Source of the DNA: Desulfobulbus propionicus
GTDB taxonomy: Bacteria > Desulfobacterota > Desulfobulbia > Desulfobulbales > Desulfobulbaceae
Direction: 5' to 3'
NCBI GenBank assembly: GCA_002748755.1
Contig: PDTD01000017.1
Location: 4,747-36,746 of the forward strand
Length of the DNA: 32,000 nucleotides
The notes under the pieces are model-generated. The model was given only the letters and a program-made list of their open reading frames with translations, was not told the DNA's origin and made no database searches. Shown here in pieces: positions 1,903-17,633 of this stretch. Within the stretch, counting starts at the first letter, position 1, and each line of letters opens with the position of its first letter. The position numbers and the translations under genes are program-made.

Positions 1903-1931
1903 GTACTAATGAAAAATAATCCTACTGTCAA
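1903..1931 (-). promoter_or_regulatory. Candidate sigma70-type promoter for the atpF'-F-H-A operon
   Basis: On the minus strand: TTGACA (1931-1926), a 17-nt spacer, then TAGTAC (1908-1903), about 95 nt upstream of the atpF' ATG. Sequence pattern only. Confidence 0.3.
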
Positions 1932-1974
1932 ACCCTTTTTAAATAAAACTTATGGGTTTTTTCAGTTACGCTTG

Positions 1975-2979
1975 TTAACGGCTGACTGGTTGTTCCCGCA
2001 TGCTTTGCAGCAAGCGCTCCAGCCCCGCTGCGGTGGAAACCAGCGCTGTATACCCCAGTATTTTTTTGGCCTTGTCATGGTTGAACCAGTGCGACTTGGA
2101 CAATTGCTGGGCCACGAATCGAGTCATTTTGGGCTCACCAGCGAAAGAAAACAGGTCAAAAAGTCCCTCCAGCAGTCCACCAACACCGTAGGCCACAGGG
2201 TAGGAAACCCTTTTGTTGACCAGAGGGATGTTCAACTCCTGGAAGAGCGTATTCACCCACTCCCAAAGCACCACCGGATTTTCCTGACCAATAAAAAAGG
2301 CCTGTCGATCAGCACTGCCGGTCTGGTGAAGGTTTTTGGCAGCAAGGACATGGGCATGAACAACATTCTCAATATAGGTGATATCCACCTTGTTGTTGCC
2401 GGAGCCGACTTTTTTCAGCTGACCTGTACGTCCCCGCTCAACCAGTCTGGGGATAAGATGAGTATCACCAGGTCCCCACACAAGGTGCGGCCTTATGGCA
2501 CATGTTTTCAAGGATCGCTCCCGGAGTCCGAGAACACATTTTTCCGCCTCTATCTTGCTTGCTGCGTAATGACAAAGCGGTTTGGAGGCATAGGGCAACT
2601 CTTCGTTACCATTTTTAATATCCTGACCATCAAAGACCACCGAGGGCGTCGACGTATAGACCAGTACAGGCACCCTGTTCTGCAGGCAGCCAGCAAGAAC
2701 ATTCTGCGTTCCCTGTACATTAACAGAATAATACTCCTGTTTCCTGCCCCAGACACCGGCCTTGGCCGCCACATGGAACACCGTATCCACATCCACAGTG
2801 GCATTCAAAATTGATGCCGGATTACAAATATCTCCCTGGAAGCAGATTATGCCGAGGTCCGAGAGGTGTGGATACGGATTTCTCCCAATGACCCGAACCT
2901 CCAACCCCTGTTCCAGAAGATACCGGGCCAAAGCAAATCCCACAAAACCGTTGCCGCCGGTGACAAGCACTTTTTTCAT
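1975..2979 (-). CDS. oleD: OleD-type NAD(P)H-dependent 2-alkyl-3-oxoacid reductase (3beta-HSD/epimerase SDR family)
   Basis: 334 aa. Rossmann motif VTGGNGFVG at the N-terminus and catalytic YAASK. Last gene of the thiolase / alpha-beta hydrolase / AMP-ligase / SDR series. Confidence 0.75.
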   Translation of the reverse strand: MKKVLVTGGNGFVGFALARYLLEQGLEVRVIGRNPYPHLSDLGIICFQGDICNPASILNATVDVDTVFHVAAKAGVWGRKQEYYSVNVQGTQNVLAGCLQNRVPVLVYTSTPSVVFDGQDIKNGNEELPYASKPLCHYAASKIEAEKCVLGLRERSLKTCAIRPHLVWGPGDTHLIPRLVERGRTGQLKKVGSGNNKVDITYIENVVHAHVLAAKNLHQTGSADRQAFFIGQENPVVLWEWVNTLFQELNIPLVNKRVSYPVAYGVGGLLEGLFDLFSFAGEPKMTRFVAQQLSKSHWFNHDKAKKILGYTALVSTAAGLERLLQSMREQPVSR

Positions 2980-3170
2980 CCTCTGAGACTCTCCCTTATT
3001 CCGTCCCTTTTTTTTGGCTCCAGCCCGTAATGTCCACTGACACCTGCCCTGCCCCTACCAGTTCACCCATGCTCTCTCACTTCTGGTATATACCTGAACA
3101 TCCCGGTACTCTGCGGTTTCTTGAGGTTGGAAGGCCTGATGCGGTCAGGCTGTTTACTGACAGTTTGCTC

Positions 3171-4826
3171 TCAACGGCCCTCGCCAAGTTGCCCTGCTGC
3201 CCAGTCCGCCAGCTTTTCCCTGAATATTTTGGCATTATGCCGGATATCCACAGGAAAAGCACCATGTACCAAAAAGGTCTCGATCGCCCTGGTATGGCTA
3301 TGGCTTTTCGCCAGCAAACGGAGTTCTCTAAAAAGCTGTTCTTGGTTTTGAATGGCACGCACTGGCTCGACCACTATCACAGGACGTTGGGCCCCTTTCT
3401 GCCCAACCCCCACCAGCGCTGAACGGAAAACGGCAGAATGCTGATTGAAGATAGCCTCGCACATTACGGAATAAAAAAGCGTGTCTCCGGCCAGCACCCT
3501 ATGCGCCTTTCTACCGCAAAACCAAAGCCGTTTCTGGTCATCCAGATAGCCGACATCGCCCATTCTGTGCCAGAATGTTCCAGTATCTTCAATTTTAGCC
3601 ATCTGGTTTTCGGTCTCATTGCCATCGTATGCACGGGTGACCACAGGCCCCCTGACCACGATCTCCCCGATTGTGCCGTTATTCAGCACAGAAACGTCCC
3701 GCCAGCGAGACACAGGCCCCTCCGATGGTTCGATAATTAAAACCTCAATACCCGGCAGCGCCCTACCCACACAGGTCCCTGCCCCTAAGACGGTCTGTTT
3801 CCAGGTCTGCTCCACGATTTCCCGCCCCTCCAGACAGACGATGGGCAGACATTCTGTAGCTCCGTAGGGCGTAAATATCTTGGCATCATCAGGCAACACC
3901 GTCTGCAACTCTTCTATAAGGTGTCCAGGCACAGGGGCTCCGGCCATCAAAATTTTTTGAAGCCCCAAGGTAATAGCATGCTCCAGGCAATACTTGCTCA
4001 CCACCTGCCAAATCGCTGGAGAACCAAAGGAGTAGGTCACCTGGTACTTCTGCAGACTGGCAACAAATTTTGCTGGATCCACTTGAGCCGGACGCGTTGG
4101 ATCCATATCAGGAATAACGGCCCTGGCACCCAGAGCGATGGAAAACAAACCAAAGAGAGGGAAACCCGGTTGATCGATATCGCTGCTGCTGATACCAAAA
4201 TAATCACGGATATACTGCAACTGAGTATGAAAAATGCCGTGGGTATATTGTACCCCTTTGGGCGGCCCCGTAGAGCCGGTGGTAAAGATAATTGCGGCCA
4301 GTGCATTGAACCTTGCTGCATGGGTTTCAGGATGCTCATCAATCGGAGTACCTTCCTCGCGATGCTGAGCAGGTGGCAGAGATGCTCCCCGCCACCAGAA
4401 CCATCCCTCCACACAGATTCTCAGTCTGACGCTCTGAAAGGGTTTGCGAAACAGAAGACTCACCAGAACGGCTTTGGGTATGCCGACAAGCACGTCAGGG
4501 CGCACCGATCCGATACAACGCAAAAGATTATTAAACCCCATCCCGGGATCAATAAGAATGACCACAGCCCCCAATTGGAACAGGGCAAAGGTGAGGGCAA
4601 TAAATTCCACTGATGGCCGAACCATCAGCATGACCCGGTCACCCGGCACTACTCCCTGGGCCAGGAGGCTGCTATGATACCCAGCGGTGATCCGGCCAAG
4701 CTCGGAAAAAGTCCAGGAATCCCAGGTGGTTCCTCGTCTAGCGGTCAGCGCGATCTTATGTTCGAGTTCCACGGCCAGATCCTGAAGGACCCGGGCGATA
4801 TTATAATCAGTCTGGGGTGTCTCCAT
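3171..4826 (-). CDS. oleC: OleC-type AMP-dependent synthetase (beta-lactone synthetase family)
   Basis: 551 aa with the AMP-binding signature IIFTTGSTGPPKGV and a later YGATE motif. Its start overlaps the oleB end by 20 nt. Confidence 0.8.
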   Translation of the reverse strand: METPQTDYNIARVLQDLAVELEHKIALTARRGTTWDSWTFSELGRITAGYHSSLLAQGVVPGDRVMLMVRPSVEFIALTFALFQLGAVVILIDPGMGFNNLLRCIGSVRPDVLVGIPKAVLVSLLFRKPFQSVRLRICVEGWFWWRGASLPPAQHREEGTPIDEHPETHAARFNALAAIIFTTGSTGPPKGVQYTHGIFHTQLQYIRDYFGISSSDIDQPGFPLFGLFSIALGARAVIPDMDPTRPAQVDPAKFVASLQKYQVTYSFGSPAIWQVVSKYCLEHAITLGLQKILMAGAPVPGHLIEELQTVLPDDAKIFTPYGATECLPIVCLEGREIVEQTWKQTVLGAGTCVGRALPGIEVLIIEPSEGPVSRWRDVSVLNNGTIGEIVVRGPVVTRAYDGNETENQMAKIEDTGTFWHRMGDVGYLDDQKRLWFCGRKAHRVLAGDTLFYSVMCEAIFNQHSAVFRSALVGVGQKGAQRPVIVVEPVRAIQNQEQLFRELRLLAKSHSHTRAIETFLVHGAFPVDIRHNAKIFREKLADWAAGQLGEGR

Positions 4827-5688
4827 GGACCTTGGTAAAAAATCTATCCAACAGATGTTTCATTTGGGGAAAGGCGTCCTCCAGGATATAGTGGCCTGCC
4901 TGGGGAAAATAATGGGCTTCTGCATTGGGAAAACGTTGCTGCCACTGCCGATAAAAATGATCGTTAAAACAAAAATCCTTACCACCCCAGCAGATGAGCA
5001 TGGGCGTGTCGGCCAGCCGGGCCAGCCCGTACTCTATCCGCCGCAGCCTCTCATAGGAAGGATGGTCAGGGGAGAGAGGAATATCTCTGATAAAATCCAG
5101 CACTGCTTTCCTGTTTTTCCACGAATCATAGGGGGCAAGATAGCCTGCGGCAACCTGTCTGTCCAAAGGTTTACTGACAGCCATGTAACGAGCGGCCCCG
5201 GCAAACCCGTTCACCCCCCGCACCAACAGATCGCCAAGCAGGGGCACCTTGCAAAGCGCGATACGAAAAGGTATCCTGGTTGAACGAAAAGCTGCCGTGT
5301 TCAGCACCACCACTCCCCGGACCATTGAGGCATGCTCCACAGCCCAGCCCAGCCCAATGGCTCCGCCCCAGTCATGCACGACCAGAATGCACGCAGCAAT
5401 CCCCAAATGATCAAGCAGCTGTTCCAGGTGTTGAATACGGGTATCCAGTGTGTAGACGCAATGCTGCGGTTTATCAGAAAAACCACAACCGAGGTGGTCT
5501 GGCACGATAACCCTGTATTGCGGTGCAAACTCAGTCACGAGATGGCGGTACATATACGACCAGGTCGGATTGCCATGTACACAGACAATGGCAGGCCCCC
5601 GGCCCTCATCCAGGTAGGCCACTCTGTTGCCGTTCAGCTCGATATAATCCGGTTGAAACGGATATTGGACCAGTTGTTCTGTCACCAT
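4807..5688 (-). CDS. oleB: OleB-type alpha/beta hydrolase (haloalkane-dehalogenase-like; beta-lactone decarboxylase family)
   Basis: 293 aa with HGNPTWSYMYRH and a VHDWGG nucleophile elbow, typical of the haloalkane dehalogenase-like fold. Overlaps oleA by 7 nt. Confidence 0.8.
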   Translation of the reverse strand: MVTEQLVQYPFQPDYIELNGNRVAYLDEGRGPAIVCVHGNPTWSYMYRHLVTEFAPQYRVIVPDHLGCGFSDKPQHCVYTLDTRIQHLEQLLDHLGIAACILVVHDWGGAIGLGWAVEHASMVRGVVVLNTAAFRSTRIPFRIALCKVPLLGDLLVRGVNGFAGAARYMAVSKPLDRQVAAGYLAPYDSWKNRKAVLDFIRDIPLSPDHPSYERLRRIEYGLARLADTPMLICWGGKDFCFNDHFYRQWQQRFPNAEAHYFPQAGHYILEDAFPQMKHLLDRFFTKVHGDTPD

Positions 5689-6716
5689 TGAAGCGCGAGA
5701 ATCATTGCATTAATACCGGAGCCAATGCCCATAAGCGCTGCATACTCCCCCGATCTGATGCCCCCCTGTTCCACCCCCAGCGCCATGGTTATGGGTGCAG
5801 AAACAGAGCCGACATTGCCAAGAAAAGGCAAGGTTTCAAAATTTTTTTCAGGATTTAGTTGGAGTTTTTCAAACAGCAGCCTGGCGTGGGCGCGACCGAC
5901 CTGATGACAAAAAAAGCGATCTATTTTCTCAGCAGGCCATCCCATGGTCGAGAGAAAATCCTGCCAACAGGCATGGGCAACGGCAACGCCCTGGTGCAGA
6001 AGCTCCTCGGACTCAGTGGACATCAGCGTGCCCTGTTCGGAATTCTGTCCGCCCTGGCAAAGGTTATTGCAGACTGTATTGGTCCGGCAGGAACCGCCAA
6101 GAAGATAATGTCCTGTATCAAGGACATCCTTGCGCGTCATGATCAGGGCAACCGCTCCAGAGCCGATGGTCAGGGATGCAAACAGATGCTTCACGCTTTT
6201 TCGGGTGAGACTGGTATCGGTTCGCATGGCAGTGAGCGTGGACTCAACCAGGTTCTCTGCCGTCTCTCCGGCCACGATAAGGCCAGAGCGAACCTGTCCC
6301 AGCTCCAGCATATTGGCCAGTACGACCACACCGTTGAGAAAGCCCAGGCATGCATTGGAGATATCAAAGATCTGGCAGGTTTGCGGCAAGCCAAGCTCTC
6401 GGTGGACAAAAGCAGCGGTGGCTGGCTCCATCATATCCCGGCAGACCGAAGTAAACAACAGACAACCCAGGTCCTCTGGAGGGATTCCGGCCTGTTCCAG
6501 AGCATGTCGGCCGGCGAGTATGGCGCCCTGACTTGGCCGGGTTCCCGGATGCCACAGCCGCCTGCTGGTGATCCCGCTCATCAGTTCCAGTCTGCCTGCC
6601 GGTAAATTCAGACGGTCATAAAGGCTTTCCAGCTGCTCCTCAATGGCAGTAGAAGTTATCTCTCTTGGCGGTAGGGCATAGCCGAAGTTATGAAGGCAGA
6701 CCTGAGAATAACGCAT
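5682..6716 (-). CDS. oleA: OleA-type thiolase-fold condensing enzyme (FabH/KAS III-like)
   Basis: 344 aa. Active-site Cys context FDISNACLGFLNG, followed by FCHQVG and GNVGSVS (His/Asn of the KAS III triad). First gene of the contiguous oleABCD order. Confidence 0.8.
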   Translation of the reverse strand: MRYSQVCLHNFGYALPPREITSTAIEEQLESLYDRLNLPAGRLELMSGITSRRLWHPGTRPSQGAILAGRHALEQAGIPPEDLGCLLFTSVCRDMMEPATAAFVHRELGLPQTCQIFDISNACLGFLNGVVVLANMLELGQVRSGLIVAGETAENLVESTLTAMRTDTSLTRKSVKHLFASLTIGSGAVALIMTRKDVLDTGHYLLGGSCRTNTVCNNLCQGGQNSEQGTLMSTESEELLHQGVAVAHACWQDFLSTMGWPAEKIDRFFCHQVGRAHARLLFEKLQLNPEKNFETLPFLGNVGSVSAPITMALGVEQGGIRSGEYAALMGIGSGINAMILALQW

Positions 6717-6827
6717 AAGACTCTTTCCATATCCGACAGTGCTCGCTTACACCGCCCTACATTCTTGCTCGTTCATGCATCCTGAACTGGTGTCATTGCT
6801 CCTTGCATACGCCCTCAGCGCCTGCAA

Positions 6828-6848
6828 GTGTTCATGAGTAATCCGGGC
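6828..6848 (+). repeat. MITE-family R-terminus fragment (copy J) fused to the DUF1232 stop codon
   Basis: GTGTTCATGAGTAATCCGGGC followed by TA. The terminal C plus TA forms the minus-strand TAG stop at 6848-6850. A second R-like piece, GTTCATGCATCCTGAAC, lies at 6771-6787. Confidence 0.55.
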
Positions 6849-7111
6849 TAGTCCACTGTGTACCTGTTGGCCCAAGCAATAAGCAGGGCGAACAAGGCCA
6901 AATCGTCCAACATCCCTATAAGTGGAATCCATTCCGGTATAATATCATAGGGAACCAGGACATAGAGGAGTCCGGCCCCAAGGACTATTTTGACAAAGAG
7001 CGGCGTTGATGGGGATACAAATACCCGCCAGGCATGCCGAATCATGCCGATAACCTTCAAGGCTGTATTCGCCGGACCGATCATGGCCTCAGGTAACCAC
7101 TTTGCCGACAA
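6848..7111 (-). CDS. DUF1232 (YkvA-like) small membrane protein
   Basis: 87 aa with the hallmark [19 protein letters not shown] motif between hydrophobic segments. Its start overlaps the FabI-like gene end by 23 nt. Confidence 0.7.
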
Positions 7112-7889
7112 TCTCTGCGTCGTAATAATTCAGCCCCATACCGGCATCCACCACCAGACACTGTCCATTCATCCCCGAAGAACGGGGCGAAAGCAAAAAT
7201 GCCGCCACATTAGCCGCTTCAACGGTCTGGAGTGCACGTTTTCTCAAGGTGGCTTTTTCGGCGAACAGATACGAATCAATATATCCTGGTATACCCGCTG
7301 AAGCCGAGGTCTTCAGCAAGCCCGGACACACCGCATTGAAGCGTACCCCGGAAAAAGAGGAAAAACTTTTTGCCAGAAAGACGACAGAGGATTCCAAAGC
7401 GGCCTTAATAGGAGCCATGTACCCATAATTCTCGGCAGCCATACGGGTAGAGGAAATGGAAACAGTGACCACAGAGGCCTGCTGAGACAATAACGACTTG
7501 AAGTGATGAGCAATAGCCACAAGTGAAAAACAACTGATGTCCACGGCCTGCAAAAAATCTCTTTTCAAAGTCTGGTGGAAAGGCCGCACCCCTGCACTGT
7601 AGTTGGCAAAGGCTATGGAGTGTACCAGCCCATCGATGGTGGCGGCAGCCTCCTGTTTAATCTGATCCCGTACGGTGATAATATTGGCCTCATCTTCCAC
7701 GTCACAGGTAAAGACATGGGATCCGGGGAAAAGTTTTTTTGCCGCAGCAACCCTCGCCTCACTGCGGACCACGTGAATTACCTCTGCACCCGCTTCCACA
7801 AGCACAGTGCCGATGTGCGCCGCCACAGACTTTTTATTCGCCAGCCCGAAAACAACAACTTTTTTCCCCTCAAGTCCAAAGAAATCCAT
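7089..7889 (-). CDS. FabI-like enoyl-ACP reductase (SDR)
   Basis: 266 aa with a glycine-rich N-terminus and a Tyr-x6-Lys signature (YGYMAPIK) characteristic of FabI-type reductases. Starts 2 nt after the FabZ-like stop. Confidence 0.7.
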
Positions 7890-7891
7890 TT

Positions 7892-8341
7892 CTACCTCTT
7901 GAGTGCACAGGAAAAATCTACCTGAACCGCCACTTTGCCAGCCACCTTGACCGATCCTTTAAGAAACCAGGCCCCACCGACGGCCTCCTTCATGCCAGCC
8001 GACACGGTGATCGTGTCCCCTGGCCTAACCTCACGTTTGAACCTTGCCCCCTGAATCCGGGTTAACACAGGAACCCCTTCCTCCACTGCCTGATCTTCTC
8101 TTGCCTGTTCCAGCATAACACTGATAAGCAGAGCGCCAGCCTGAAAAACTGCCTCACAGAGGATGACACCGGGCACCAGGGGATACGCAGGATAATGCCC
8201 TTTGAACATCTCCAGCTCCGGTGGTATTCTTTTCTCCGCAACAATGCTGTCATCGTTGATCTCCACCACCCTGTCCAACCACAAAAAGGGTGGTCTGTGC
8301 GGAATCTTTTCATAAATATAGGACACCCCCTTGTCAGGCAT
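7892..8341 (-). CDS. FabZ-family 3-hydroxyacyl-ACP dehydratase (hotdog fold)
   Basis: Motifs [13 protein letters not shown] and [17 protein letters not shown] place the start at the internal Met (MPDKG, ATG at 8341-8339), which overlaps the fabG stop as TGATG. The track ORF extends to 8401 inside fabG. Confidence 0.75.
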
Positions 8342-9078
8342 CACAGTCCCCCTGTTACCTCGAGGAGCGCACCATTGATATAGGAAGCTCTGGTACTGCA
8401 CAGGAAGAGGACAGCCTCTGCAACCTCATCGGGCCGCCCAAACCGCCTCTGGGGCACCATTTTTTTGTATTCCTGTAGCTGTGATTCAGAAAGATCGTCT
8501 ATCAGGTCAGTGGCTATAAAACCCGGAGAGACACAATTCACTGTAATTTTCTTTTTGGCAACTTCTTTACTCAGTGATTTAGCCAGCCCAACCTGTCCGG
8601 CCTTGGAAGCGGCATAATTGGCCTGACCCGGAAAACCCATGGCACCCATGGGCGAGGTAATGAAGACAATCCGGCCATATTTCTGCTGCATCATGAGCGG
8701 GACGACAAATCGAGACATATGAAAGCCACCACTCAGGTTCACCTCAAGAACCCGCTGCCAGTCTTCCGGTTTCATCATGGCCAGCACGGCATCCCGCCGC
8801 ACCCCCGCGTTGTTAACTAAGATATCAATGGTTGTAAACTGTTCCACCACCCATGTATAAAAATGCTCCACCGCCGTATAATCACTGACATCAAGCTGGT
8901 AGAGCTTCAGTGTTCCCGCAAGCAAAACAGCTTCTTTGGTCAGCTGTTGCGCCGCTGTCTTGTTGCCAGCATAAATTCCAATGACAGTTGCCCCCTGCTC
9001 CAGCAAAGCCCTGGTCACAGCTTTCCCAATCCCACGGGTGGCACCTGTCACGATAGCCTTTTTCCCCTCAAACTCCAC
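8341..9078 (-). CDS. fabG: 3-oxoacyl-ACP reductase
   Basis: 245 aa with TGATRGIGKA, NNAG and YAASKAG motifs. GTG start preceded by AAGGGGG. Confidence 0.8.
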   Translation of the reverse strand: MEFEGKKAIVTGATRGIGKAVTRALLEQGATVIGIYAGNKTAAQQLTKEAVLLAGTLKLYQLDVSDYTAVEHFYTWVVEQFTTIDILVNNAGVRRDAVLAMMKPEDWQRVLEVNLSGGFHMSRFVVPLMMQQKYGRIVFITSPMGAMGFPGQANYAASKAGQVGLAKSLSKEVAKKKITVNCVSPGFIATDLIDDLSESQLQEYKKMVPQRRFGRPDEVAEAVLFLCSTRASYINGALLEVTGGL

Positions 9079-9200
9079 AGTTCCCCCTTGTTATCTCCTC
9101 TCTCATATCCGTACCTTCTTCTTGAATCCAGACCAAGCACTCCCCAGTGGCACCTCGGTCTCCAGTTGTTTCAGCCTTAAACCTGCAGCGTGGTGTCCCT

Positions 9201-9221
9201 GTTCATAGCTGCAGATCCAGG
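9201..9221 (+). repeat. MITE-family R-terminus-like fragment (copy K) abutting the stop of the 9222-10628 gene
   Basis: GTTCATAGCTGCAGATCCAGG is immediately followed by TCA (minus-strand TGA stop, 9222-9224). It resembles the R arm GTTCATGAGACATCCGGGC. The rest of the 143-bp gap is too diverged to align by eye. Confidence 0.4.
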
Positions 9222-10628
9222 TCAACAACGAAGAAAACCATCCACATCATTGGCCACTATAACCCCATAGTTGATGGCCCCCAGCCAGCCGGACATAATA
9301 ATACCAACCGACCCGGCATGAAACAAGCCCGGAATTTCCTTGTGTAGGGATCGGGAAACCTCCAATCCTTCAAATTTAGTACCAAAAGATGTCCCTCTGG
9401 TGTGCAGAGTATAGCGATGAAACGTGCGGGGAGTGGCCGATTCCAGGGTGTCGATTTTGTCCCGTACCCCAGGAAGGTAGCGTTCAAGATCCTGCAGACA
9501 CCGTTCTATCATAGCCTGCTTGGCTTCCAGATATTGATTCTGCTCCAGACCTGCCCAGGCATTGTAATCGGCGTTCATTGAAGCCACAATGGTATAGTCC
9601 GGTTGGTCAGGACGGGTTTTGGGATAGTAAATGGAAAAAGTCCGGCTTGAGGTCTCCATACTGCACAGTTCACTGGCATCGAACTCCGGGGCGGAAGAAG
9701 AGAAAATCAGGTCTCCTATATCAGCAATGGCCTCACCCTTGCGTATCCCCATATAGACTTGGCAGCTTGAATTACTGACTATAACGCGGTCAAATCGAGA
9801 GAGGAAAGCTCCTCCAAATGCTTCCCTGCCAACGAGCTGCTCCACGGTATTGGTTATTCCTGCGTTGGACACCACTGATCGCGCCTCTATAAGGGTGTTG
9901 TCAACCAGCACGCCCTGTATCCGGCCCCGCTCAAGGACGACCCGCTCAACCAGCGCCCGAGTACAAATGGTGACCCCATTGGATTCCAGTTCTTCAGCCA
10001 TAAGGGCAATCAACCTGTCTGTCCCGCCCTGGAACGTAAAAACCCCTTTATTCATGAAGTTGGAAAATACAATACCGTACGTAATGGCCGGTTCGTCCAG
10101 GGTCGAGCCATTGGCATAGGTGATGGGTTCCATGAGTAACCTGTGCACATCACTCCTGCCCGGAAAAAACTGCTCAAACAGTTCCCTGGTGGTCATGGAC
10201 TGTTCATCGTAGAAATTCATGCTGTCCACGGTTTTAAAAAAATCATCAACAGTCTGGGGGTGAATGGCAAACTTTTCCTGGAGAATACGAATAAAGTCTT
10301 CCTTGCTGAAGGTGGTGGTCAAAGTAAACTGCGGGTTATTGAAGACAATATTTGGCAGCGGGACAATGGCGTCTCGAATGGCCTTTCCCCAATATTTTTT
10401 ACAGGTCTTAACCATGCCGTAAGGAAAACCATGGAGGGAAACATCGAAGATATGACCGCCGCGTCTGAACCAAGTTGCCAAGCCGCCAAGCTGAAAATGG
10501 TGCTCCAGAAGCAATACGCTGTGACCTGTCTTGGCCAGCCTGTTGGCACAGGTCAGGCCACCCAGACCTGAGCCGATGACAATAACATCGTAACGGGGCA
10601 GAAGTTGTTTTTTACCTGCACTCTTCAT
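9222..10628 (-). CDS. FAD-dependent oxidoreductase, phytoene-desaturase/amine-oxidase (CrtI-like) fold, paralog 1
   Basis: 468 aa. N-terminal dinucleotide-binding motif [30 protein letters not shown] followed by GGLA. Length and C-terminal GSVGIIMSG region fit the CrtI/retinol-saturase-like family. Confidence 0.7.
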
Positions 10629-10654
10629 AATACGTCTACTTAATGGTGTAAAAC

Positions 10655-10893
10655 TCCCTGCACACCAACTCAGGACAGGGATGTAGTTGTCTGTTCCTGA
10701 TGCAGTTCCTCAGAACGCACCCTCTTTGCACGACCACAGGCACTCTCCCGCGAAGCTAACAACCTTTCTGACTTGTAACAAAACCTTCTGGAAGACGATT
10801 TGAGAAAAATTTGGAATAATTGCTGCAATTACTTTATGTTCTAACTATTTATTCTATTTTCATTTCCATACAATGTTCATGAAAAATTTGGGC
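10655..10893 (+). repeat. Degenerate MITE-family copy (H) between the two flavoenzyme genes
   Basis: L-like CCCTGCACACCAACTCAGG at 10656-10674. The tail and R arm (TTATTCTATTTTCATTTCCATACAATGTTCATGAAAAATTTGGGC) end at 10893, followed by TA. The terminal C plus TA is the gene's TAG stop. The core is badly decayed. Confidence 0.45.
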
Positions 10894-12266
10894 TAGAGTA
10901 CATGGGTATTGACCATAACCACCCCGCTCAGCATGGACCCAACAATGCCCAGATATCCCTGATCGGTACCGGCAATATACAAATTTTTCCAGGGTGTTTT
11001 GCCCGTTGCCAGTTTAACAGGACTGCCGTAGACGGCACCAGCCTTTTTCCGGGTGAATCGCTCAATGGTAAGCGGGGTAAAACTGTCCTGAAAAACAATA
11101 TCCTCGGCATAGGGGCCAATAATCCTGCTGCTGCTTGCAACCGCCTCATGGGCGCAGCGCCTCTTTTCCTGCCGGTATTGTCTAGACGACAACGCCTGCC
11201 AGAGAGAATAATTGGCAGCATTGGTAACCCGTATCTGCGATTCTTCCATCTGTTCCAGCCCTTGAAAGTTTTGGGAAAAACAAATAACCCCCCATTGCGG
11301 ATCAATGAGTTCCCCTGGCTGTCTATAGCGCACCGAGTCGGCATGGCTGTAAAAAAGTATGGCCTCTCCGCTATGCAGCCTATCGGCAACATTCGGTTTG
11401 AGGACCGACAAGGTCTCCAAAAAGCTCATCCGGCCGGTATATTGTGCGGTCTCAGTCTGCCAACCGGTCAACCGTATGGTTTCTGGTATACCGACCGTGG
11501 AGACGATATGCTCTGCAGAAACAGACGTACCATCGGTAAAATGCGCTCTTTGCACCTTTTTCGAGTCATGCTCCAAGGTTTCAACAGCCTTGTTATAGCG
11601 AATCTCCCCCCCGAAGCGCTCGAATTGTTGCAGCACGAGCAGGAGAAAGTCCCGCATGGTGCCTTGGGGACGAAACAATCCTTCCTCGAAAAGAGCCCGG
11701 AACATGATGACAAACTGACCCAGACTCATGTCATCTTCTTCCGCGTTTCCGTAGACCATTGTCGGCAGGAGAATCATGCGCTCCAAAAGGGGTTCGGCAA
11801 GGTGATGGGATAAAAACGCGCGAGCAGACTGCCATGGTTGCACGCTAAAGGCATCATACTCTTTGACAGCCTGCCGCAGGCGTCGGAAACGATCAATACA
11901 GCCGGAGAAGGTCTGAGCAACCTCATCCTCCAGCAAGGCGACATCGTTTGAAAAGCGAATTGTAGCTGAGGGGAAACGTACAAGGGAATACTTCTGCGGA
12001 CATAGCTGGAACGTTTGACGGGAGAGTTTCAGCTGGCGAAACAACAGATTCAGGGGAGCTTTTTTTTCCCCTGGAAGAGCAAAATTCGTCATGGCATGCA
12101 GACCTGTCTCAAAAAACCGACCTTGCCTGTAAAAATAGGAGTTGAGTCCTCCCGGCAATGCATGCTGCTCAACAATAAGTGTCTTGACCCCGAAACGGGC
12201 GGCACGGATGCCTGCGGCAATGCCAGAGAGTCCGCCACCAATAACGAGGAGCTGATAATCAGCCAT
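10893..12266 (-). CDS. FAD-dependent oxidoreductase, CrtI-like fold, paralog 2
   Basis: 457 aa. N-terminus YQLLVIGGGLSGIAAGIRAARFGVKTLIVEQ followed by PGGL. C-terminal GTDQGYLGIVGSMLSG resembles paralog 1. Confidence 0.7.
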   Translation of the reverse strand: MADYQLLVIGGGLSGIAAGIRAARFGVKTLIVEQHALPGGLNSYFYRQGRFFETGLHAMTNFALPGEKKAPLNLLFRQLKLSRQTFQLCPQKYSLVRFPSATIRFSNDVALLEDEVAQTFSGCIDRFRRLRQAVKEYDAFSVQPWQSARAFLSHHLAEPLLERMILLPTMVYGNAEEDDMSLGQFVIMFRALFEEGLFRPQGTMRDFLLLVLQQFERFGGEIRYNKAVETLEHDSKKVQRAHFTDGTSVSAEHIVSTVGIPETIRLTGWQTETAQYTGRMSFLETLSVLKPNVADRLHSGEAILFYSHADSVRYRQPGELIDPQWGVICFSQNFQGLEQMEESQIRVTNAANYSLWQALSSRQYRQEKRRCAHEAVASSSRIIGPYAEDIVFQDSFTPLTIERFTRKKAGAVYGSPVKLATGKTPWKNLYIAGTDQGYLGIVGSMLSGVVMVNTHVL

Positions 12267-12319
12267 AGAAGTTGTACGCCTGCGCTATTCCCTGCTTTTT
12301 CAAGAGCCTGGCAGAATAA

Positions 12320-12571
12320 TCAGGTGTTTTTAAGTTTTGGCTCCAGATAGTTGACACAACTTGTCAAAGTAACCAGTTCTGGATATTCCTCTTCTGGAAT
12401 CTGCACCTGATATCGCTTGCGCAATTCCATGACAATATCCAAGAAATCCATGGAATCCAGATCAAACTGATCACGCAGGGGCTCGTCGGCATCCAGATTG
12501 TCAAAATCTGCTTCTTCATCTATCTCTTCAATGATTTCAAGGACAACATCCTTGATTTCCTCACGAGTCAT
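12320..12571 (-). CDS. Acyl carrier protein (stand-alone)
   Basis: 83 aa from the internal Met (MTREEIKD), preceded by GGAGAGG. Acidic, with the phosphopantetheine-attachment context DLDSMDFLDIV. The track ORF extends upstream to 12634, with no support for the extension. Confidence 0.8.
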   Translation of the reverse strand: MTREEIKDVVLEIIEEIDEEADFDNLDADEPLRDQFDLDSMDFLDIVMELRKRYQVQIPEEEYPELVTLTSCVNYLEPKLKNT

Positions 12572-12642
12572 TCGATAACCTCTCCTCTCCACACAATACC
12601 AGATAAACAAACCAGGGGACTTCTTGCCAGCCAATGGTCATA

Positions 12643-12858
12643 GCCCGAACTTCTCATGAACATTGTGCAGAAATAAAAAAAGTATTATAAAATCAATAAA
12701 CTAGGAAAAAAGTGTCACCAATCTCTCCAAAATATACATCAAAGCTCAGTTCGGCTGTCACCATCTTCGCCAGTGTTTTGACAGTACATAGAGGGTACGA
12801 GAATGCACTGCCCAAAACTGTGCATCTGGCACCGCCTGTGCTAATGAGAAATCCGGAA
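12643..12858 (-). mobile_element. MITE-family copy I (near full length, canonical core orientation) between the KS and ACP genes
   Basis: TA then GCCCGAACTTCTCATGAACATTG (reverse-complemented R arm) at 12643. CATCAAAGCTCAGTTCGG (inner arm), then a diverged core ending CTGGCACC, then GCCTGTGCTAATGAGAAATCCGG (reverse-complemented L arm) ending ~12856. Confidence 0.7.
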
Positions 12859-12943
12859 TCGTTTACGTTCACGTCTCCAACCAGTACCCGGGGGCAATGC
12901 CTCAGCAAGGCCGACAAAGCCGAAACACATACCACAAAAACAG

Positions 12944-14194
12944 TCAGTTTGCCATAAATCTCTTGACTATAACCACTGAATTTATCCCCAGCATCCCAAA
13001 GGAATTGTTAAGAATGGCATGCACCTCGGGGACTGTCCGCGGTTCATCAATGACCAGGCCGCGAAGGTTGCACGCCGGATCCAGTTCATCGATATTGATA
13101 GTTGGATGGACCATATGATCAGTAAAGGTCGGTAGGTTACATGCCAATTCCAACACGCCTGCCGCGCCCATGGCATGGCCGATGGTGGATTTGGTGTTAT
13201 TTATCCATGTGGTGGGGCAATCGTTGAAGAGTTCTCCGACAGCCCAGCACTCCTCCCCGTCCCCCTGGGGAGTCCCTGTGGCATGGGTATTGACAACGGT
13301 TATATGCTCTGGTGACATCCCCGCTTTTTTCAAGGCCATCTCCATACAGGCTTTCTGTCTGGGCCCATATGGCAGAACAAAGTCCCTTGCATCGGAGTTC
13401 ATGGCATAGCCTGCTATCTCACAATATATTGTGGCTTGGCGTTTCAAGGCCTTGTCCAGGCGCTCCAGGGTAAAGATGCAGCCTCCATCGGAAATAACAA
13501 TGCCGTTGCGCCCCTTGTCAAAGGGGCGACTGGCTTGAGTTGGATCTTCGTGCTCCGCCAATGCTCCTTGGGCTTTGAAGCTGGCAAAAATACCGAAAGA
13601 GCCTGTACATTCAGAAAAGCCACCACACAACGCCAGGTCCACCTCATCAAGCAGCAACATCTGAACCCCCTGGATCAGAGAGGCGTTGCCAGCAGCACAG
13701 GCAGCGCCAATAGAGTAGTGGGGACCGGTAATCCCCAGGTTCATGGTTATTTCACCAGCGGGATTATTCAATACGGTGCGGGGATTATGGTGGTGTGTCC
13801 AGTACTGGACGTTGTTGTCAAATTGGCCTATGTTATACACTTCATTTTCCGTTTCAACGGTTCCGTGTTCCGTCAGGCCAGTGTATACTCCAGTTCGGCT
13901 TTTATCATACTCTGTAAAATCGATCCGGGCATCGGTCAAAGCTTCGTTGGCACAATACACAGCCATACATCCGGCGCGGGTGCCCCTCTTGTTTTCACGC
14001 TTTTTACGGTATCGGGTTTCATCAAAACTGCACAGGCCTGCCGGATGAGGCCCCATATATCGCAAGTCCAGAGTGCCAATACCGCTCTTTCCCTCCAGTA
14101 CATTGCTCCTGAATTCTTTGAGGGAAGAAGCCCCGGGGGCCACCAACCCAACCCCGGTTATAACTATACGTTGTGAATCTGCTAATATGTTCAT
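12944..14194 (-). CDS. Beta-ketoacyl-ACP synthase, FabF/FabB-type
   Basis: 416 aa with active-site contexts GAACAAG (Cys), HATGTPQGD (His) and GHAMGAAG (His). First gene of the lipid locus. Confidence 0.85.
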   Translation of the reverse strand: MNILADSQRIVITGVGLVAPGASSLKEFRSNVLEGKSGIGTLDLRYMGPHPAGLCSFDETRYRKKRENKRGTRAGCMAVYCANEALTDARIDFTEYDKSRTGVYTGLTEHGTVETENEVYNIGQFDNNVQYWTHHHNPRTVLNNPAGEITMNLGITGPHYSIGAACAAGNASLIQGVQMLLLDEVDLALCGGFSECTGSFGIFASFKAQGALAEHEDPTQASRPFDKGRNGIVISDGGCIFTLERLDKALKRQATIYCEIAGYAMNSDARDFVLPYGPRQKACMEMALKKAGMSPEHITVVNTHATGTPQGDGEECWAVGELFNDCPTTWINNTKSTIGHAMGAAGVLELACNLPTFTDHMVHPTINIDELDPACNLRGLVIDEPRTVPEVHAILNNSFGMLGINSVVIVKRFMAN

Positions 14195-14535
14195 TCTCTA
14201 TCTTTTCTTCAACTGAGGTCTCCAGGCTCCTGGACTAAAACAATCGTCTGAGAGACTATACAAAAAGTTCTCACTATTCTCAGAGGATGCGAACGTGAGG
14301 ATAAGGAGCAGGCCAGTATAGGTCTGCTCAGACATGAGGAGTTGGATCCTGCGCCTGCCCTATCCGCATGCAGGCAAAAACCAGATCCAAAGCAGACAAA
14401 AAAGAATGCGGAAAACATCTGAAAAGGTCCATGCCGCCCTTTTGCTTATTTCTCAGAATACACCTGTACCCCTAAGTCGGTGAGCCCAGAGAGCAGTAAG
14501 CGGATATGCCCCTCAAAAGACCTGTGCACGCAGCG

Positions 14536-17181
14536 CTACTGCAGCAGTTTTCGGACTATCTCCGGCACTTCGGCCATGGCTTCACCCAGCTTATCAGGCA
14601 TAGAGCCACCGGCCTGAGCCATATCAGGCCGACCGCCCCCTTTTCCACCAACAATGGCAGCGACCTGCTGGACCACCTCACCGGCCTTGATTCTTGTGGT
14701 CAGGTCTTTGGAAACCAGAGACAACAGGGCAGCCTTACCTGCAAACTCGCCGCCAAGCACCGCGACTCCTGAGACCAGTTTATCCCGCACTTTATCACCG
14801 ATTTCACGGAGCGTCTTGGGGCTGTCCAATTGCACAAGGGATGCGACAACCGGCACACCAGCCACCTCAACAGCCCCTGCAATCATCTGCTCCAGATTGG
14901 CCAGGGACATGGAAGCATGTAACGAGGCAATCTCTTTTTCCAGCTCTTTTTGGCGTCTAAGCAAGGCGGCAATCTTGTCCGCTGCGCTCTCAAAAGGTCC
15001 GGCAACAGCTTCGGACACAGCAGCGACATTCCTGATCAAGCCATGCATCCAGGCAACGGCCTCGGCACCAGTCACCGCTTCGATTCGCCGTACGCCTGCA
15101 GCAATACCTGTTTCATGAATTATCTTGAAAAATCCTATGTTGCCGGTAGCAGAGGTATGTGTACCACCACAGAGTTCTTTACTGAAATTGCCGATAGAAA
15201 CCACCCGCACCGTATCTCCATATTTTTCTCCAAAAAGGGCTGTCGCCCCTTCGGCAATGGCCTGCTCACGCTCCATGACCTCTCCACTCACCCGGGTATT
15301 ACGCCTTATCTCATCATTGACAAGTTGTTCAATGCGGATGATTTCTTCAGGAGTAATCGGAGAGAAATGGGTACAGTCAAATCGTAATCGCTTGTCGTCC
15401 ACCAACGATCCGGCCTGTTTCACATGATCTCCCAAGACCTCTTTCAGGGCAGCATGCACAAGGTGGGTTGCTGTATGATTCAAAGCGACAGCGATTCTTC
15501 GCGCTCCCACCTCCAAACAGACGGCTTGACCAACTTTGGCCGTGCCTGCTTCTACCACGCCATGGTGGAGGATGATGCCCTCCGCTGGAGACGTTGTCTG
15601 CTCCACCAAAATCCGTCCATTCTGCCAGCGTATTTCTCCAGAGTCACCGACCTGTCCACCAGATTCTGCGTAAAAGGGAGTTTTCGCACAGACAAAACGA
15701 ACTCTTCTCCCCTGCCCGGCTTGGTCCACCAACTGCCCATGCTCATCAAGAATACCTATAAATTCCGACTCTTCAACCCGGGCGGCATATCCGGTGAAAT
15801 CGCACCGCGTTCCCTGCTCAAGCAGCGTGAGTACGCCCTCGTCCAGATGATCGATATCGCTTCCTTTCCATGACCTCCTGGACTGCTCACGCTGATGTTG
15901 CATGGATTGGTCAAATCCCTGCTGGTCAAAACCGACACCCCGCTCAATGGCAATATCGCGAACGATGTCCACGGGAAAACCGTAAGTATCATAGAGCGTA
16001 AAGATAAAGGTACCGTCAATGACGGCATTCTCGACACGTTTTTGCTGGAGACGCTCTATCTCCTGACCGAGCTTCTGCAAGCCATTGTCTAGAGTTTGGC
16101 CAAACCGTCTTTCCTCATTGCTCACCACTTTGGCAAGCAGCTTCTTTGTTTCTCCTAGGTGCGGATAGGCTGCCACCATATTCTCCGTCACTAAGGCGCA
16201 GACACCAGGAAAAAAGGAATCCAGTCCCAGGGCGCGGCCATAACGAATGGCTCTGCGCATAATTCTGCGCAGTACATACCCCCGCCCTTCATTGGACGGG
16301 AGTACGCCATCTGCCACCAGAAAGGTTGTTGCCCGGGCATGATCCGCAATGACCCGAAGTGAGACATCGTCCTGATCATTATCGTGATACTTTTTCCCTG
16401 CAAGTTTGGCTATATACTCAATAAGCGGGGTAAACAGATCACAATCAAAATTATTGTGTTTCCCCTGAAGAACGGCTGCAACGCGTTCAAGCCCCATGCC
16501 TGTATCAATGGAAGGCTTTGGCAGCGGGGTCATGTTCCCTTCTTCATCGCGATAGAACTGCATAAACACGAGGTTCCAGAGTTCCAGATACCGGTCACAA
16601 TCACATCCCAAAAAACAATCAGGCCTACCGCAGCCAAGGCTTTCCCCCTGATCGATATGAATCTCTGAACAGGGTCCGCAAGGCCCTGTGTCACCCATGG
16701 CCCAAAAGTTGTCTTTTTCGCCCATACGCACAATTCTACCAGCAGGAAGGCCTTGCACCTCTTCCCACAGTGCATACGCCTCATCGTCCTCTTTATAAAC
16801 GGATACCCAGAGTTTTTCGGGATCAATACCAAGTTCTACGGTCAGAAACTCCCAGGCAAAGGCAATAGCCTCCTTTTTAAAATAATCGCCAAAAGAGAAA
16901 TTTCCCATCATCTCGAAAAAGGTATGATGCCGGGCTGTATAGCCAACGTTCTCGAGGTCATTGTGCTTGCCGCCTGCCCGTACGCAGCCCTGGGCCGTTG
17001 TCGCTCGCACATAAGGGCGCTTTTCTTCACCCATGAATACCTTTTTGAACTGCACCATCCCTGCGTTGACAAAGAGCAGGGTCGGGTCATCATGGGGCAC
17101 AAGCGAGGAAGACGCTACCCTGGTATGACCATTTCCTTCAAAAAATTGCAAAAAACGTCTTCGGATCTCTTCTCCAGTCAT
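14536..17181 (-). CDS. alaS: Alanine--tRNA ligase
   Basis: 881 aa with class II AlaRS hallmarks: N-terminal FLQFFEGNGH, FANAGM-like VNAGMVQFK, the editing-domain HTATHLVHAAL / CGGTH zinc motif, and a C-terminal DHHA1-type GGKGGGRPDMAQAGG. Confidence 0.95.
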   Translation of the reverse strand: MTGEEIRRRFLQFFEGNGHTRVASSSLVPHDDPTLLFVNAGMVQFKKVFMGEEKRPYVRATTAQGCVRAGGKHNDLENVGYTARHHTFFEMMGNFSFGDYFKKEAIAFAWEFLTVELGIDPEKLWVSVYKEDDEAYALWEEVQGLPAGRIVRMGEKDNFWAMGDTGPCGPCSEIHIDQGESLGCGRPDCFLGCDCDRYLELWNLVFMQFYRDEEGNMTPLPKPSIDTGMGLERVAAVLQGKHNNFDCDLFTPLIEYIAKLAGKKYHDNDQDDVSLRVIADHARATTFLVADGVLPSNEGRGYVLRRIMRRAIRYGRALGLDSFFPGVCALVTENMVAAYPHLGETKKLLAKVVSNEERRFGQTLDNGLQKLGQEIERLQQKRVENAVIDGTFIFTLYDTYGFPVDIVRDIAIERGVGFDQQGFDQSMQHQREQSRRSWKGSDIDHLDEGVLTLLEQGTRCDFTGYAARVEESEFIGILDEHGQLVDQAGQGRRVRFVCAKTPFYAESGGQVGDSGEIRWQNGRILVEQTTSPAEGIILHHGVVEAGTAKVGQAVCLEVGARRIAVALNHTATHLVHAALKEVLGDHVKQAGSLVDDKRLRFDCTHFSPITPEEIIRIEQLVNDEIRRNTRVSGEVMEREQAIAEGATALFGEKYGDTVRVVSIGNFSKELCGGTHTSATGNIGFFKIIHETGIAAGVRRIEAVTGAEAVAWMHGLIRNVAAVSEAVAGPFESAADKIAALLRRQKELEKEIASLHASMSLANLEQMIAGAVEVAGVPVVASLVQLDSPKTLREIGDKVRDKLVSGVAVLGGEFAGKAALLSLVSKDLTTRIKAGEVVQQVAAIVGGKGGGRPDMAQAGGSMPDKLGEAMAEVPEIVRKLLQ

Positions 17182-17444
17182 TGCTCAACAAAAAAGTAAA
17201 AGTTATATCTAATCGGGCGGAAGGCAGCCCGGGCATGGATGTGCAGTCCCCCTGCAGGCATCTCTTTTGGTCCTGAAAAAAGAAAGCTGCATGATATACA
17301 CGAAATGTTCTCATGCCAATAAAAAAACACCTTCTGCCCTTGTCCAATGCAGGTCGGCAACGCAGGTCGACAACAAATGGGGGCCCAGGGAGCCGGTCTT
17401 GCAAAACCCGGCCCCTTTCCTTGTTCCTGCTCTGTCTGGAAAAC

Positions 17445-17478
17445 AAAACAGGCAGGGCACCCCTGCCCTGCCTGTTTT
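17445..17478 (-). terminator. Intrinsic (bidirectional-looking) terminator downstream of acs
   Basis: Perfect 14-bp stem AAAACAGGCAGGGC / GCCCTGCCTGTTTT with a 6-nt loop, and T-runs on both strands. Lies ~155 nt downstream of the acs stop, beyond repeat copy D. Confidence 0.6.
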
Positions 17479-17497
17479 GTTCTCTTCGGAAACTCTC

Positions 17498-17633
17498 GCC
17501 CGGATTGTTCATGGACATTTTGTCTCCTTTGAAAAAAAAGAGACAAAAACAGATGGATGTAATGTCCGTGAGCAGGTCCGAACTTCGACAAAATATGCAC
17601 CTGGCACAGCCTGAGCTGATAAGAAATCCAGGC
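17498..17633 (-). mobile_element. MITE-family copy D, short core-less variant, in the acs 3' region
   Basis: GCCCGGATTGTTCATGGAC (reverse-complemented R arm), tail with CAGATGGATGT, then only CTGGCACA (the first bases of the core), then GCCTGAGCTGATAAGAAATCCAGGC (reverse-complemented L arm). The last C plus TA is the acs TAG stop (17633-17635). Confidence 0.7.

Follow-up and report, generated by a model that had tools for sequence, protein, structure and literature searches.

A 32,000-nt stretch of the Desulfobulbus propionicus assembly GCA_002748755.1 (contig PDTD01000017.1), referred to here as the window and used for all numbering, carries a set of paralogous type II fatty acid synthase (FAS) genes together with two genes for FAD proteins of the CrtI superfamily (Flv1 and Flv2). 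The set occupies the minus strand from 14194 to 6848, immediately 5' of the hydrocarbon genes oleABCD, and with them forms a run of 12 co-oriented and contiguous genes spanning ~12 kb. The reading favoured here, with a probability of roughly 55%, is that the module constitutes a discrete-enzyme (type II) counterpart of the Pfa polyunsaturated fatty acid (PUFA) synthase, which hands an unsaturated chain bound to its acyl carrier protein (ACP) to OleA. The broader notion of a dedicated type II module feeding Ole is well supported by the sequence comparisons described below.

The original prediction named a β-ketoacyl-ACP synthase (KS), an ACP, two flavoenzymes, FabG, FabZ, FabI, and a DUF1232 protein; all were found on the minus strand, and their families were upheld by Pfam and NCBIfam, which were used for gene family assignment. 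The KS, ACP, and FabI motifs that it cited are intact. Cys164 of the KS lies in SIGAACAAGN and its two histidines in NTHATGTPQGD and STIGHAMGAAG, all three aligning with the catalytic positions of FabF (4QAV); the phosphopantetheine-site serine of the ACP is found in FDLDSMDFLD, and FabI retains Tyr155-x6-Lys. FabG contains the catalytic motif YAASK (Y-x3-K), while FabZ has GHYP...E, with the catalytic His/Glu context aligned with FabZ (4H4G). NCBIfam equivalog cut-offs, in bits, served as the test for housekeeping enzymes. The KS scores 294 on the fabF model TIGR03150 (cut-off 494), FabZ 104 on TIGR01750 (cut-off 155) and 106.6 on a second model (cut-off 113), FabI 166 on the best FabI equivalog (cut-off 362), and the ACP 33 against 70, below every AcpP equivalog cut-off. 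FabG reaches 279 on TIGR01830 (cut-off 297.75) and passes only the subfamily model NF009466. Because all of them fall under the housekeeping cut-offs, these genes are, judged by their scores, paralogs and not the primary FAS. The proteins of the window cluster are all discrete and single-domain, and no multidomain Pfa protein is present (TIGR02813 PfaA, 69.7 against a cut-off of 1010).

The downstream genes belong by sequence to the OleABCD pathway, with an OleA-family protein that retains its cysteine and is clustered with OleB, OleC, and OleD. OleA scores 425.7 on NF006720 (cut-off 285), and its active-site Cys is located in ISNACLG. OleC reaches 643 on NF006754 (cut-off 478) and matches olefin β-lactone synthetase models with 533 and 492 bits, under their strict cut-offs (533 against 900). 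Two OleD models are the top NCBIfam matches of OleD (377 and 338 bits, cut-off 580), and the top matches of OleB are haloalkane dehalogenase models, under cut-off. The genes follow the order A-B-C-D, with an overlap of 7 nt between oleA and oleB, an overlap of 20 nt between oleB and oleC, and 191 nt between oleC and oleD.

Scanning genomes with aligned Flv1 orthologs confirmed at least 586 loci, of which the best 80 were analysed; neighbors were located by tblastn with the window proteins, and adjacency was counted only where the contig extends far enough. The order KS-ACP-Flv2-Flv1-(FabG)-FabZ-(FabI) is kept in Desulfobulbales, Dehalococcoidia (Chloroflexota), Phycisphaerae (Planctomycetota), Nitrospinota, Nitrospirales, and Muiribacteriota. 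Among the genome loci, Flv1 is 58-76% identical across phyla, and the KS orthologs are 58-79% identical. Adjacent to Flv1 are Flv2 in 62 of 68 loci, the ACP in 59 of 65, the KS in 52 of 57, and FabZ in 64 of 69; the corresponding fractions are 61/74 for FabG and 39/68 for FabI. The near-constant core thus consists of KS, ACP, Flv2, Flv1, and FabZ. FabG and FabI are dispensable, their roles presumably being taken over by housekeeping enzymes; FabI is absent from the Desulfocapsaceae modules, and FabG from the Phycisphaerae-type loci and from loci that end in oleA-oleB. The DUF1232 gene occurs between FabI and OleA only in Desulfobulbaceae-type loci.

The absence of FabD, a thioesterase, an ACP-to-CoA handover enzyme, and a phosphopantetheinyl transferase (PPTase), pointed out in the original prediction, holds for the window cluster, from which an acyl-CoA ligase is absent as well. 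As regards the PPTase, the gap is largely filled by loci elsewhere: an Sfp-type (ACPS-superfamily) PPTase gene directly follows FabI in 17 genome loci from Chloroflexota, Phycisphaerae, Muiribacteriota, and others (L053 13467-14054, L071 12859-13551, and 15 further genome loci), and again in metagenome loci. FabD is also absent from the annotated neighborhoods, and the housekeeping FabD presumably serves the module.

Ole genes are found in only a few percent of bacterial genomes. Of the 31 genome loci whose contigs extend 9 kb or more in either direction, 17 have oleB, oleC, or oleD in their flanks, and 3 more have OleA only; an ole gene (at least 40% identity) also flanks 13 of the 22 metagenome loci with at least 5 kb on both sides. 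At least five different gene orders relate the module to ole. Desulfobulbaceae and relatives, including D. propionicus DSM 2032, show core-FabI-DUF1232-oleABCD; a Nitrospirales metagenome-assembled genome (L075) has oleABCD-core, and Phycisphaerae (L063, L071, L079, and L132) have oleC-oleD-core. In Dehalococcoidia, a gene of the OleA family (453 bits on NF006720) lies directly upstream of the KS, while ~17 loci of an independent metagenome sample read core-FabI-oleA-oleB, some of them (such as L096, L098, and L130) as Flv1-FabZ-FabI-oleA-oleB with no KS or Flv2 upstream. In Desulfocapsaceae a convergent oleD-oleC pair is located ~7.5 kb downstream, past tolQRA-tolB. The repeated juxtaposition with ole, well above what chance would produce and in several orders, argues that module and ole are functionally coupled. 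The neighborhood comparison proposed in the original prediction, co-occurrence of the KS-ACP-flavoenzymes-FabG-FabZ-FabI set with ole, has therefore turned out favorably; the opposite outcome that it envisaged, upstream genes mostly found apart from ole and with another assigned function, did not occur, and no other function has been assigned to the module.

Flv1 and Flv2 share 23% identity over their full length (E 4e-20), and both contain GxGxxG; as predicted, they are paralogs, although distant ones. Flv1 has the same sequence as a protein in a metagenome-assembled genome labelled Desulfobulbus propionicus. Flv2 matches CrtI (4DGK, E 2.5e-10). The AlphaFold (AF2) model of Flv1 (pLDDT 83, pTM 0.84) has as its best fold matches the gamma-carotenoid desaturase 4REP (TM 0.77), the plant phytoene desaturase (PDS) 5MOG (0.70), and CrtI 4DGK, and it bears out the assignment to the CrtI/PDS fold. 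The polyenoic fatty acid isomerase of Propionibacterium acnes is not among the top 50 fold matches of the model. On the carotenoid model TIGR02734, Flv1 scores 91.6 and Flv2 55.6 against a cut-off of 238.1; Flv1 scores 108 on CrtD (cut-off 550) and 103 on CRTISO (cut-off 587), and its orthologs 76-96 bits on the carotenoid models. A search with Flv1 of 1.84 billion cluster representatives at E<=1e-30 returned 175 relatives, in which the identity of the full-length ones runs from 59% down to ~38-39% and then steps to ~30%. The outgroups of ~30% identity beyond this step also miss the carotenoid cut-offs, and Flv1 thus forms a separate clade with sharp limits. When distant Flv1 representatives (P0123-P0132) were used to search metagenomes, loci of the main clade were recovered instead.

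Desaturases, saturases, and redox-neutral isomerases (CRTISO) all belong to the CrtI superfamily. Family scores do not separate these activities (108 bits on CrtD and 103 on CRTISO for Flv1), so that the flavoproteins could be either redox-neutral CRTISO-like isomerases or acceptor-dependent dehydrogenases. An isomerase, with no need of an electron acceptor, would suit strict anaerobes, whereas a desaturase would need quinone.

The nature of the product is suggested by Desulfotalea psychrophila, a member of the order that carries the module. It makes C31:8 and C31:9 hydrocarbons, ~5% of its lipid extract, and its genome contains nothing like a polyketide synthase-type PUFA synthase; three genes resembling amine oxidases or phytoene dehydrogenases lie in its type II FAS (FASII) clusters, two of them adjacent (DP2405 and DP2406) (Rattray et al. 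2009, PMC2649909). The same authors note that such C31:8/C31:9 hydrocarbons had also been reported from Planctomycetes, and they propose a novel anaerobic route to PUFA and polyunsaturated hydrocarbons (PUHC) for FASII clusters with phytoene-dehydrogenase-like genes; ole genes are unmentioned (PMC2649909). Because every Desulfocapsaceae locus recovered here has an adjacent Flv2-Flv1 pair inside KS-ACP-...-FabG-FabZ, DP2405 and DP2406 are very probably Flv2 and Flv1. A polyunsaturated product is plausible for the window since D. psychrophila, of the same order, makes such compounds (PMC2649909). Desulfobulbales are absent from the published lists of pfa-like clusters (PMC3098273, PMC4882568).

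As for the transfer from ACP to OleA, left unexplained in the original prediction, expression of pfaA-E with oleA in Escherichia coli gives a 31:8 ketone, from which the authors concluded that the in vivo substrate of OleA is the acyl-ACP of the synthase, used directly (Allemann et al. 2019, PMC6463001). The gap is thereby largely closed, and no thioesterase or CoA ligase need be postulated.

According to the favored reading, chain growth would proceed on the private ACP, so that intermediates stay separate from the synthesis of bulk lipids. The specialised KS and FabZ would accommodate unsaturated intermediates, while Flv1 and Flv2 would fix double bonds that survive elongation. OleA would then draw two acyl-ACPs directly for head-to-head condensation, and OleBCD would convert the product to a long polyene hydrocarbon of the C31:8/C31:9 type. 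In our own derivation, modelled on the scheme accepted for Pfa synthases, a 16:4n-3 precursor would require seven condensations, with three enoyl reductions (cycles 1, 4, and 7, counted from the methyl end), two trans-2 to cis-3 shifts (cycles 2 and 5), and two trans-2 to cis-2 shifts (cycles 3 and 6). Two distinct double-bond-handling activities would be needed, matching the two co-conserved flavoproteins between ACP and FabG; the presence of two such proteins may thus reflect the need for two regiochemistries. Their operon position between ACP and FabG suggests action on ACP-bound enoyl intermediates. Taken further, tentatively and at somewhat under even odds, Flv1 and Flv2 would be ACP-dependent, oxygen-independent flavoenzymes that introduce or retain cis double bonds (one Delta-3-type, one Delta-2-type) while a type II system elongates the chain. 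KS, ACP, FabZ, Flv1, and Flv2 would then represent an uncharacterised, horizontally mobile discrete-enzyme PUFA synthase, which would supply Ole in groups that include Desulfobulbales, Phycisphaerae, and Nitrospirales and, in Nitrospinota, possibly the membrane lipids.

Several observations weigh against this interpretation. Characterised desaturases and isomerases of the CrtI family typically yield conjugated bonds, unlike the methylene-interrupted C31:9 of Shewanella. No ole gene lies within 10 kb in the Nitrospinota loci L059, L070, and L078 or in the Desulfocapsaceae loci L021-L023, L026, L040, L045, and L047, and the Dehalococcoidia loci show only an OleA-family gene. The Nitrospinota modules have genes for ispF, a U32 peptidase, and an SPFH protein as neighbors. 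The predicted physical joining to Ole therefore stands for the window and several phyla and is not universal: the coupling is frequent, not obligatory. Flv1 is kept alone in Candidatus Electronema (L007), Planctomycetota (L064), and Opitutales (L082), and also at L114, L156, and L162. In D. propionicus DSM 2032 and Desulfogranum mediterraneum, too, the operon is placed between alaS and the atp genes; these flanks are themselves conserved within Desulfobulbaceae, so that synteny within the family partly reflects vertical inheritance and the comparison across phyla is the informative one. The polyunsaturated product is documented outside the organisms shown here to carry the module; among the best 120 matches of a search from the Desulfocapsa ortholog, no protein is labelled D. 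psychrophila, while Desulfocapsa sulfexigens, Desulfopila, and Desulfosediminicola are present.

The most serious rival, in view of the modules that lack ole in their vicinity and of the unusual conservation of Flv1, is that the module makes unsaturated fatty acids, ordinary or unusual, for the membrane under anaerobic conditions and replaces FabA/FabB, as FabX, FabM, FabN, and FabQ do elsewhere, with Ole being one consumer or a neighbor. It would account for the modules of Nitrospinota and part of the Desulfocapsaceae, and the identity of Flv1 across phyla suggests a core function. The finding that one 16:1 isomer and the 18:1 isomers of D. psychrophila are as 13C-depleted as its PUHCs hints at a shared separate pool (PMC2649909, Table 3). 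This explanation is nevertheless unlikely: the presence of ole at 10 kb or less in over half of the loci with long flanks, and in at least five gene orders, is hard to reconcile with it, an ACP and an Sfp-type PPTase of its own are typical of a secondary-lipid synthase, and the source of PUHCs in the pfa-less D. psychrophila would be left unexplained.

Double bonds might instead be introduced after Ole. The module would then provide a saturated or mono-unsaturated chain, and Flv1 and Flv2 would later desaturate the long hydrocarbon or ketone outward from its central bond, as CrtI does, to a conjugated polyene. Like phytoene, the Ole product is a long hydrocarbon whose centre bears a cis double bond, and the structures nearest to the CrtI/PDS fold of Flv1 are carotenoid desaturases; the linkage of Flv1-FabZ-FabI-OleA-OleB without KS or Flv2 upstream (L096, L098, and L130) also fits, as does the fact that the double-bond positions of the D. 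psychrophila PUHCs were not determined (PMC2649909). Such a sequence of events is nonetheless improbable, given that Flv2 and Flv1 lie between ACP and FabG/FabZ in nearly all loci and are retained where ole is not nearby, and that the C31:8/9 formula is identical to that of the PUFA-derived Shewanella compound.

Still less credit is due to the possibility that the flavoproteins act as reductases (saturases, like RetSat in the CrtISO family) or auxiliary proteins, the module giving Ole a chain of special length, saturated or branched. Saturases exist in the CrtI superfamily, and the redox steps seem interchangeable, since FabI or FabG is missing from some of the modules mentioned above. Both flavoproteins are kept, however, even where FabI is present, and relatives are reported to contain highly unsaturated hydrocarbons (PMC2649909).

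That genuine carotenoid (or squalene/hopanoid) enzymes are present here by accident can be dismissed as highly improbable: although public records label the flavoproteins 'phytoene dehydrogenase' and the top structural match is a carotenoid desaturase, their scores are far under every curated carotenoid cut-off, their identity to CrtI is 22-30% in partial alignments only, crtB, crtE, and other isoprenoid genes occur neither in the window nor in annotated related loci, the linkage to KS and ACP is near-invariant, and the related (not orthologous) Kuenenia proteins kuste3336 and kuste3607 failed to complement crtI (Javidpour et al. 2016, PMC4790861). A carotenoid role was therefore rejected on the scores and the genomic context; the flavoenzymes fall into no curated carotenoid family, and clustering with genuine carotenoid enzymes would have spoken against the original prediction.

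The proposed discrete-enzyme Pfa counterpart resembles several known systems in part. Like Pfa-OleABCD of Shewanella and the pfa-ole tandem of Geobacter bemidjiensis (C31:9), it combines a dedicated synthase, having its own ACP, with adjoining ole genes. Pfa-like clusters adjoin ole in Geobacter, where the product is C31:9 (Shulse and Allen 2011, PMC3098273; Yoshida et al. 2016, PMC4882568). The expected product class is likewise a C31 polyene from two unsaturated C16 chains, with OleA fed by the acyl-ACP of the synthase (PMC6463001, PMC4882568, PMC3098273). As in Pfa clusters with pfaE, the module often has its own PPTase in other phyla, though not in the window. Unlike Pfa, it has no multidomain type I protein, tandem ACPs, pair of KS and chain length factor (CLF), FabA-like dehydratase, or PfaD-type enoyl reductase; it consists of discrete FabF/G/Z/I paralogs and two CrtI-fold flavoproteins, the latter not found in Pfa systems.

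A precedent is provided by the FASII clusters of D. psychrophila and Kuenenia stuttgartiensis, for which oxygen-independent FASII extension by amine-oxidase/CrtI-like enzymes, leading to PUFA and PUHC, has been proposed (Rattray et al. 2009; Javidpour et al. 2016); in the 2009 study, unlike here, the clusters were not tied to ole. Flv1 shares 27% identity with kuste3607, its match to kuste3336 is confined to the FAD-binding N-terminus, and Flv2 is ~22% identical to both (sequences from the supplement of PMC4790861). A link to ladderane synthesis was rejected: at 22-27% identity the Kuenenia proteins are not orthologs and belong to a different subfamily, and the window cluster has no radical-SAM gene.

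Amine-oxidase/CrtI-type FAD enzymes acting on acyl chains are also known from the furan fatty acid pathway (UfaD) and from P. acnes (polyenoic fatty acid isomerase), the precedents to which the original prediction referred. These desaturate or isomerise free or phospholipid-bound fatty acids, giving conjugated products. Flv1 and Flv2, by contrast, are encoded in a KS/ACP operon, and a relationship is seen no closer than the superfamily. Helicobacter pylori FabX, a flavin-dependent acyl-ACP dehydrogenase/isomerase of anaerobic unsaturated fatty acid synthesis, is similar in concept only, as a flavoenzyme that uses ACP-bound intermediates for an oxygen-free cis double bond; its fold and family are different, and it is a single enzyme inside the housekeeping FAS. 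Aryl-polyene and flexirubin type II clusters share dedicated KS, ACP, FabG-like, and FabZ-like (ApeI-like) paralogs; FabG reaches 248 bits on the FlxB model, and FabZ orthologs match PF22818 (ApeI-like). Assignment to such a cluster was nonetheless rejected: CLF and aryl starter enzymes are missing, an enoyl reductase and CrtI-like enzymes are present, and the FlxB cut-off of 340 is missed.

No published study linking this gene set with ole or testing its function was found, and in a 2026 review the desaturase step is still hypothetical (PMC13459092). The statement in the original prediction that no characterised pathway has this composition is thus correct as to function, while the idea itself has a precedent in Rattray et al. 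(2009). Apparently new are the fusion to oleABCD, the linkage in multiple phyla and arrangements, a PPTase private to the module, and the distinction from the Kuenenia enzymes.

In Shewanella and Geobacter, the 16:4 precursor of the polyunsaturated C31 compounds is supplied by a Pfa megasynthase; for Desulfotalea, the precursor source has been open since 2009, and the locus places a compact candidate for precursor supply directly in an ole operon. If the more far-reaching version of the reading is true, a third route to polyunsaturated acyl chains would exist beside aerobic desaturases and Pfa megasynthases. Confirmation of the candidate would reveal new oxygen-independent enzymology making polyunsaturated chains from small soluble parts, of interest for lipid biochemistry, biomarkers of anoxic sediments, and hydrocarbon or PUFA engineering, and would clarify the role of CrtI-like genes in FAS clusters, a question that the ladderane problem brings up but that is separate from it.

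All long genes from 112 to 19621 lie on the minus strand and would be transcribed in the order acs, a 140-aa open reading frame (ORF), alaS, the FAS/flavoprotein set, oleA-B-C-D, atpF', atpF, and atpH. The features of the locus are listed below.

Table. Features of the FAS/flavoprotein-ole locus and copies of the dispersed repeat (positions in the window)
Feature	Position	Strand	Family or remark
KS, FabF-type β-ketoacyl-ACP synthase, 416 aa	12944..14194	-	PF00109 + PF02801
KS-ACP spacer, 372 nt	12572..12943	.	dispersed-repeat copy 12728-12856 + 45-nt inverted-repeat arm 12641-12685
ACP, private, 83 aa	12320..12571	-	PF00550; serine within DLDSMDF
Flv2, CrtI-superfamily FAD protein, 457 aa	10893..12266	-	Amino_oxidase + NAD_binding_8
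Flv1, CrtI/PDS-fold FAD protein, 468 aa	9222..10628	-	Amino_oxidase + NAD_binding_8
FabG-type 3-oxoacyl-ACP reductase, 245 aa	8341..9078	-	adh_short/KR
FabZ-type 3-hydroxyacyl-ACP dehydratase, 149 aa	7892..8341	-	PF07977, FabA/FabZ fold
FabI-type enoyl-ACP reductase, 266 aa	7089..7889	-	adh_short_C2
DUF1232 small membrane protein, 78 aa (ATG 7084) or 87 aa (TTG 7111)	6848..7084	-	PF06803
OleA, thiolase-fold head-to-head condensing enzyme	5682..6716	-	NF006720
OleB, α/β hydrolase, haloalkane-dehalogenase type	4807..5688	-	Abhydrolase_1
OleC, AMP-dependent β-lactone synthetase	3171..4826	-	AMP-binding; NF006754
OleD, 2-alkyl-3-oxoalkanoate reductase	1975..2979	-	3Beta_HSD/Epimerase
Repeat-family copies	12728-12856, 17490-17609, 19707-19803, 20173-20301, 23826-23922, 24274-24343, 25721-25817	both orientations	

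The range first proposed for the set (7089-14194) leaves most of the DUF1232 gene outside. For this gene, the ATG listed is the most likely start; FabZ probably starts at ATG 8341, which gives an overlap of 1 nt with the FabG stop. For the ACP, ATG 12571, preceded by a strong ribosome-binding site (GGAGAGGAGAGG), is a more likely start than TTG 12634, and the ACP ortholog in D. propionicus DSM 2032 likewise has 83 aa. The remaining junctions measure 53 nt (ACP-Flv2), 264 nt (Flv2-Flv1), 143 nt (Flv1-FabG), 2 nt (FabZ-FabI), 4 nt (FabI-DUF1232), and 131 nt (DUF1232-OleA). The claim that the genes overlap or are separated by 1-2 nt unless a repeat is inserted is correct as to repeats in the KS-ACP and Flv2-Flv1 spacers, but no repeat was detected in the gaps of 53, 131, and 143 nt. 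An 80-aa ORF inside the KS-ACP spacer (12693-12935) has no family match. Predicted promoters and terminators between 1800 and 14700 occur near the levels of shuffled sequence (15 against 10.3 +/- 3.2 and 20 against 15.1 +/- 3.2, respectively) and are uninformative on co-transcription.

The dispersed intergenic repeats form a family of ~100-130 nt, with 64-88% identity between copies, that is possibly similar to miniature inverted-repeat transposable elements. In addition, a 45-nt inverted pair (10851-10895 and 12641-12685) flanks Flv2 and ACP, one arm being inside the Flv2-Flv1 spacer. In the type strain D. propionicus DSM 2032, the matching spacers measure 55-77 nt (77 nt between KS and ACP), and Flv1 is separated from FabG by an inserted 230-aa DUF6946 gene (L002 11420-12112) that is absent in the window and in Desulfogranum.

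Related loci show further variation. The solitary Flv1 gene of the cable bacterium Candidatus Electronema sp. (L007 10001-11365, 75% identity) is adjacent to genes for citrate synthase and a PAS-domain protein; the surrounding 7-10 kb contain neither KS, ACP, or Flv2 nor any ole gene. Four Dehalococcoidia-type loci (L051, L061, L065, and L134) contain a tandem duplication of the OleA-family gene and KS (sometimes ACP) upstream of the module and no oleBCD within their flanks, which suggests that the end product differs (it may be, e.g., a ketone) or that the OleA-like enzyme serves in priming. In L095 (12865-14923) and ~16 similar metagenome loci, the operon ends with oleA-oleB, and a gene for an EF-hand protein comes after oleB; the short-chain dehydrogenase/reductase encoded divergently upstream is a sugar epimerase, not OleD, so that oleC and oleD must be elsewhere or absent. 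At L071, the PPTase gene is followed by one for a 343-aa α/β hydrolase without an NCBIfam match.

Elsewhere in the window, an 891-aa ORF on the plus strand (20953-23628) has no Pfam match at E<=1e-3 and is flanked by copies of the repeat family. The 140-aa ORF between acs and alaS (17178-17600, minus strand) has no Pfam or NCBIfam match; it overlaps the repeat copy at 17490-17609 and may not be a real gene. At the corresponding position, Desulfogranum has genes for a cNMP/CBS/DUF294 protein and RNase T.

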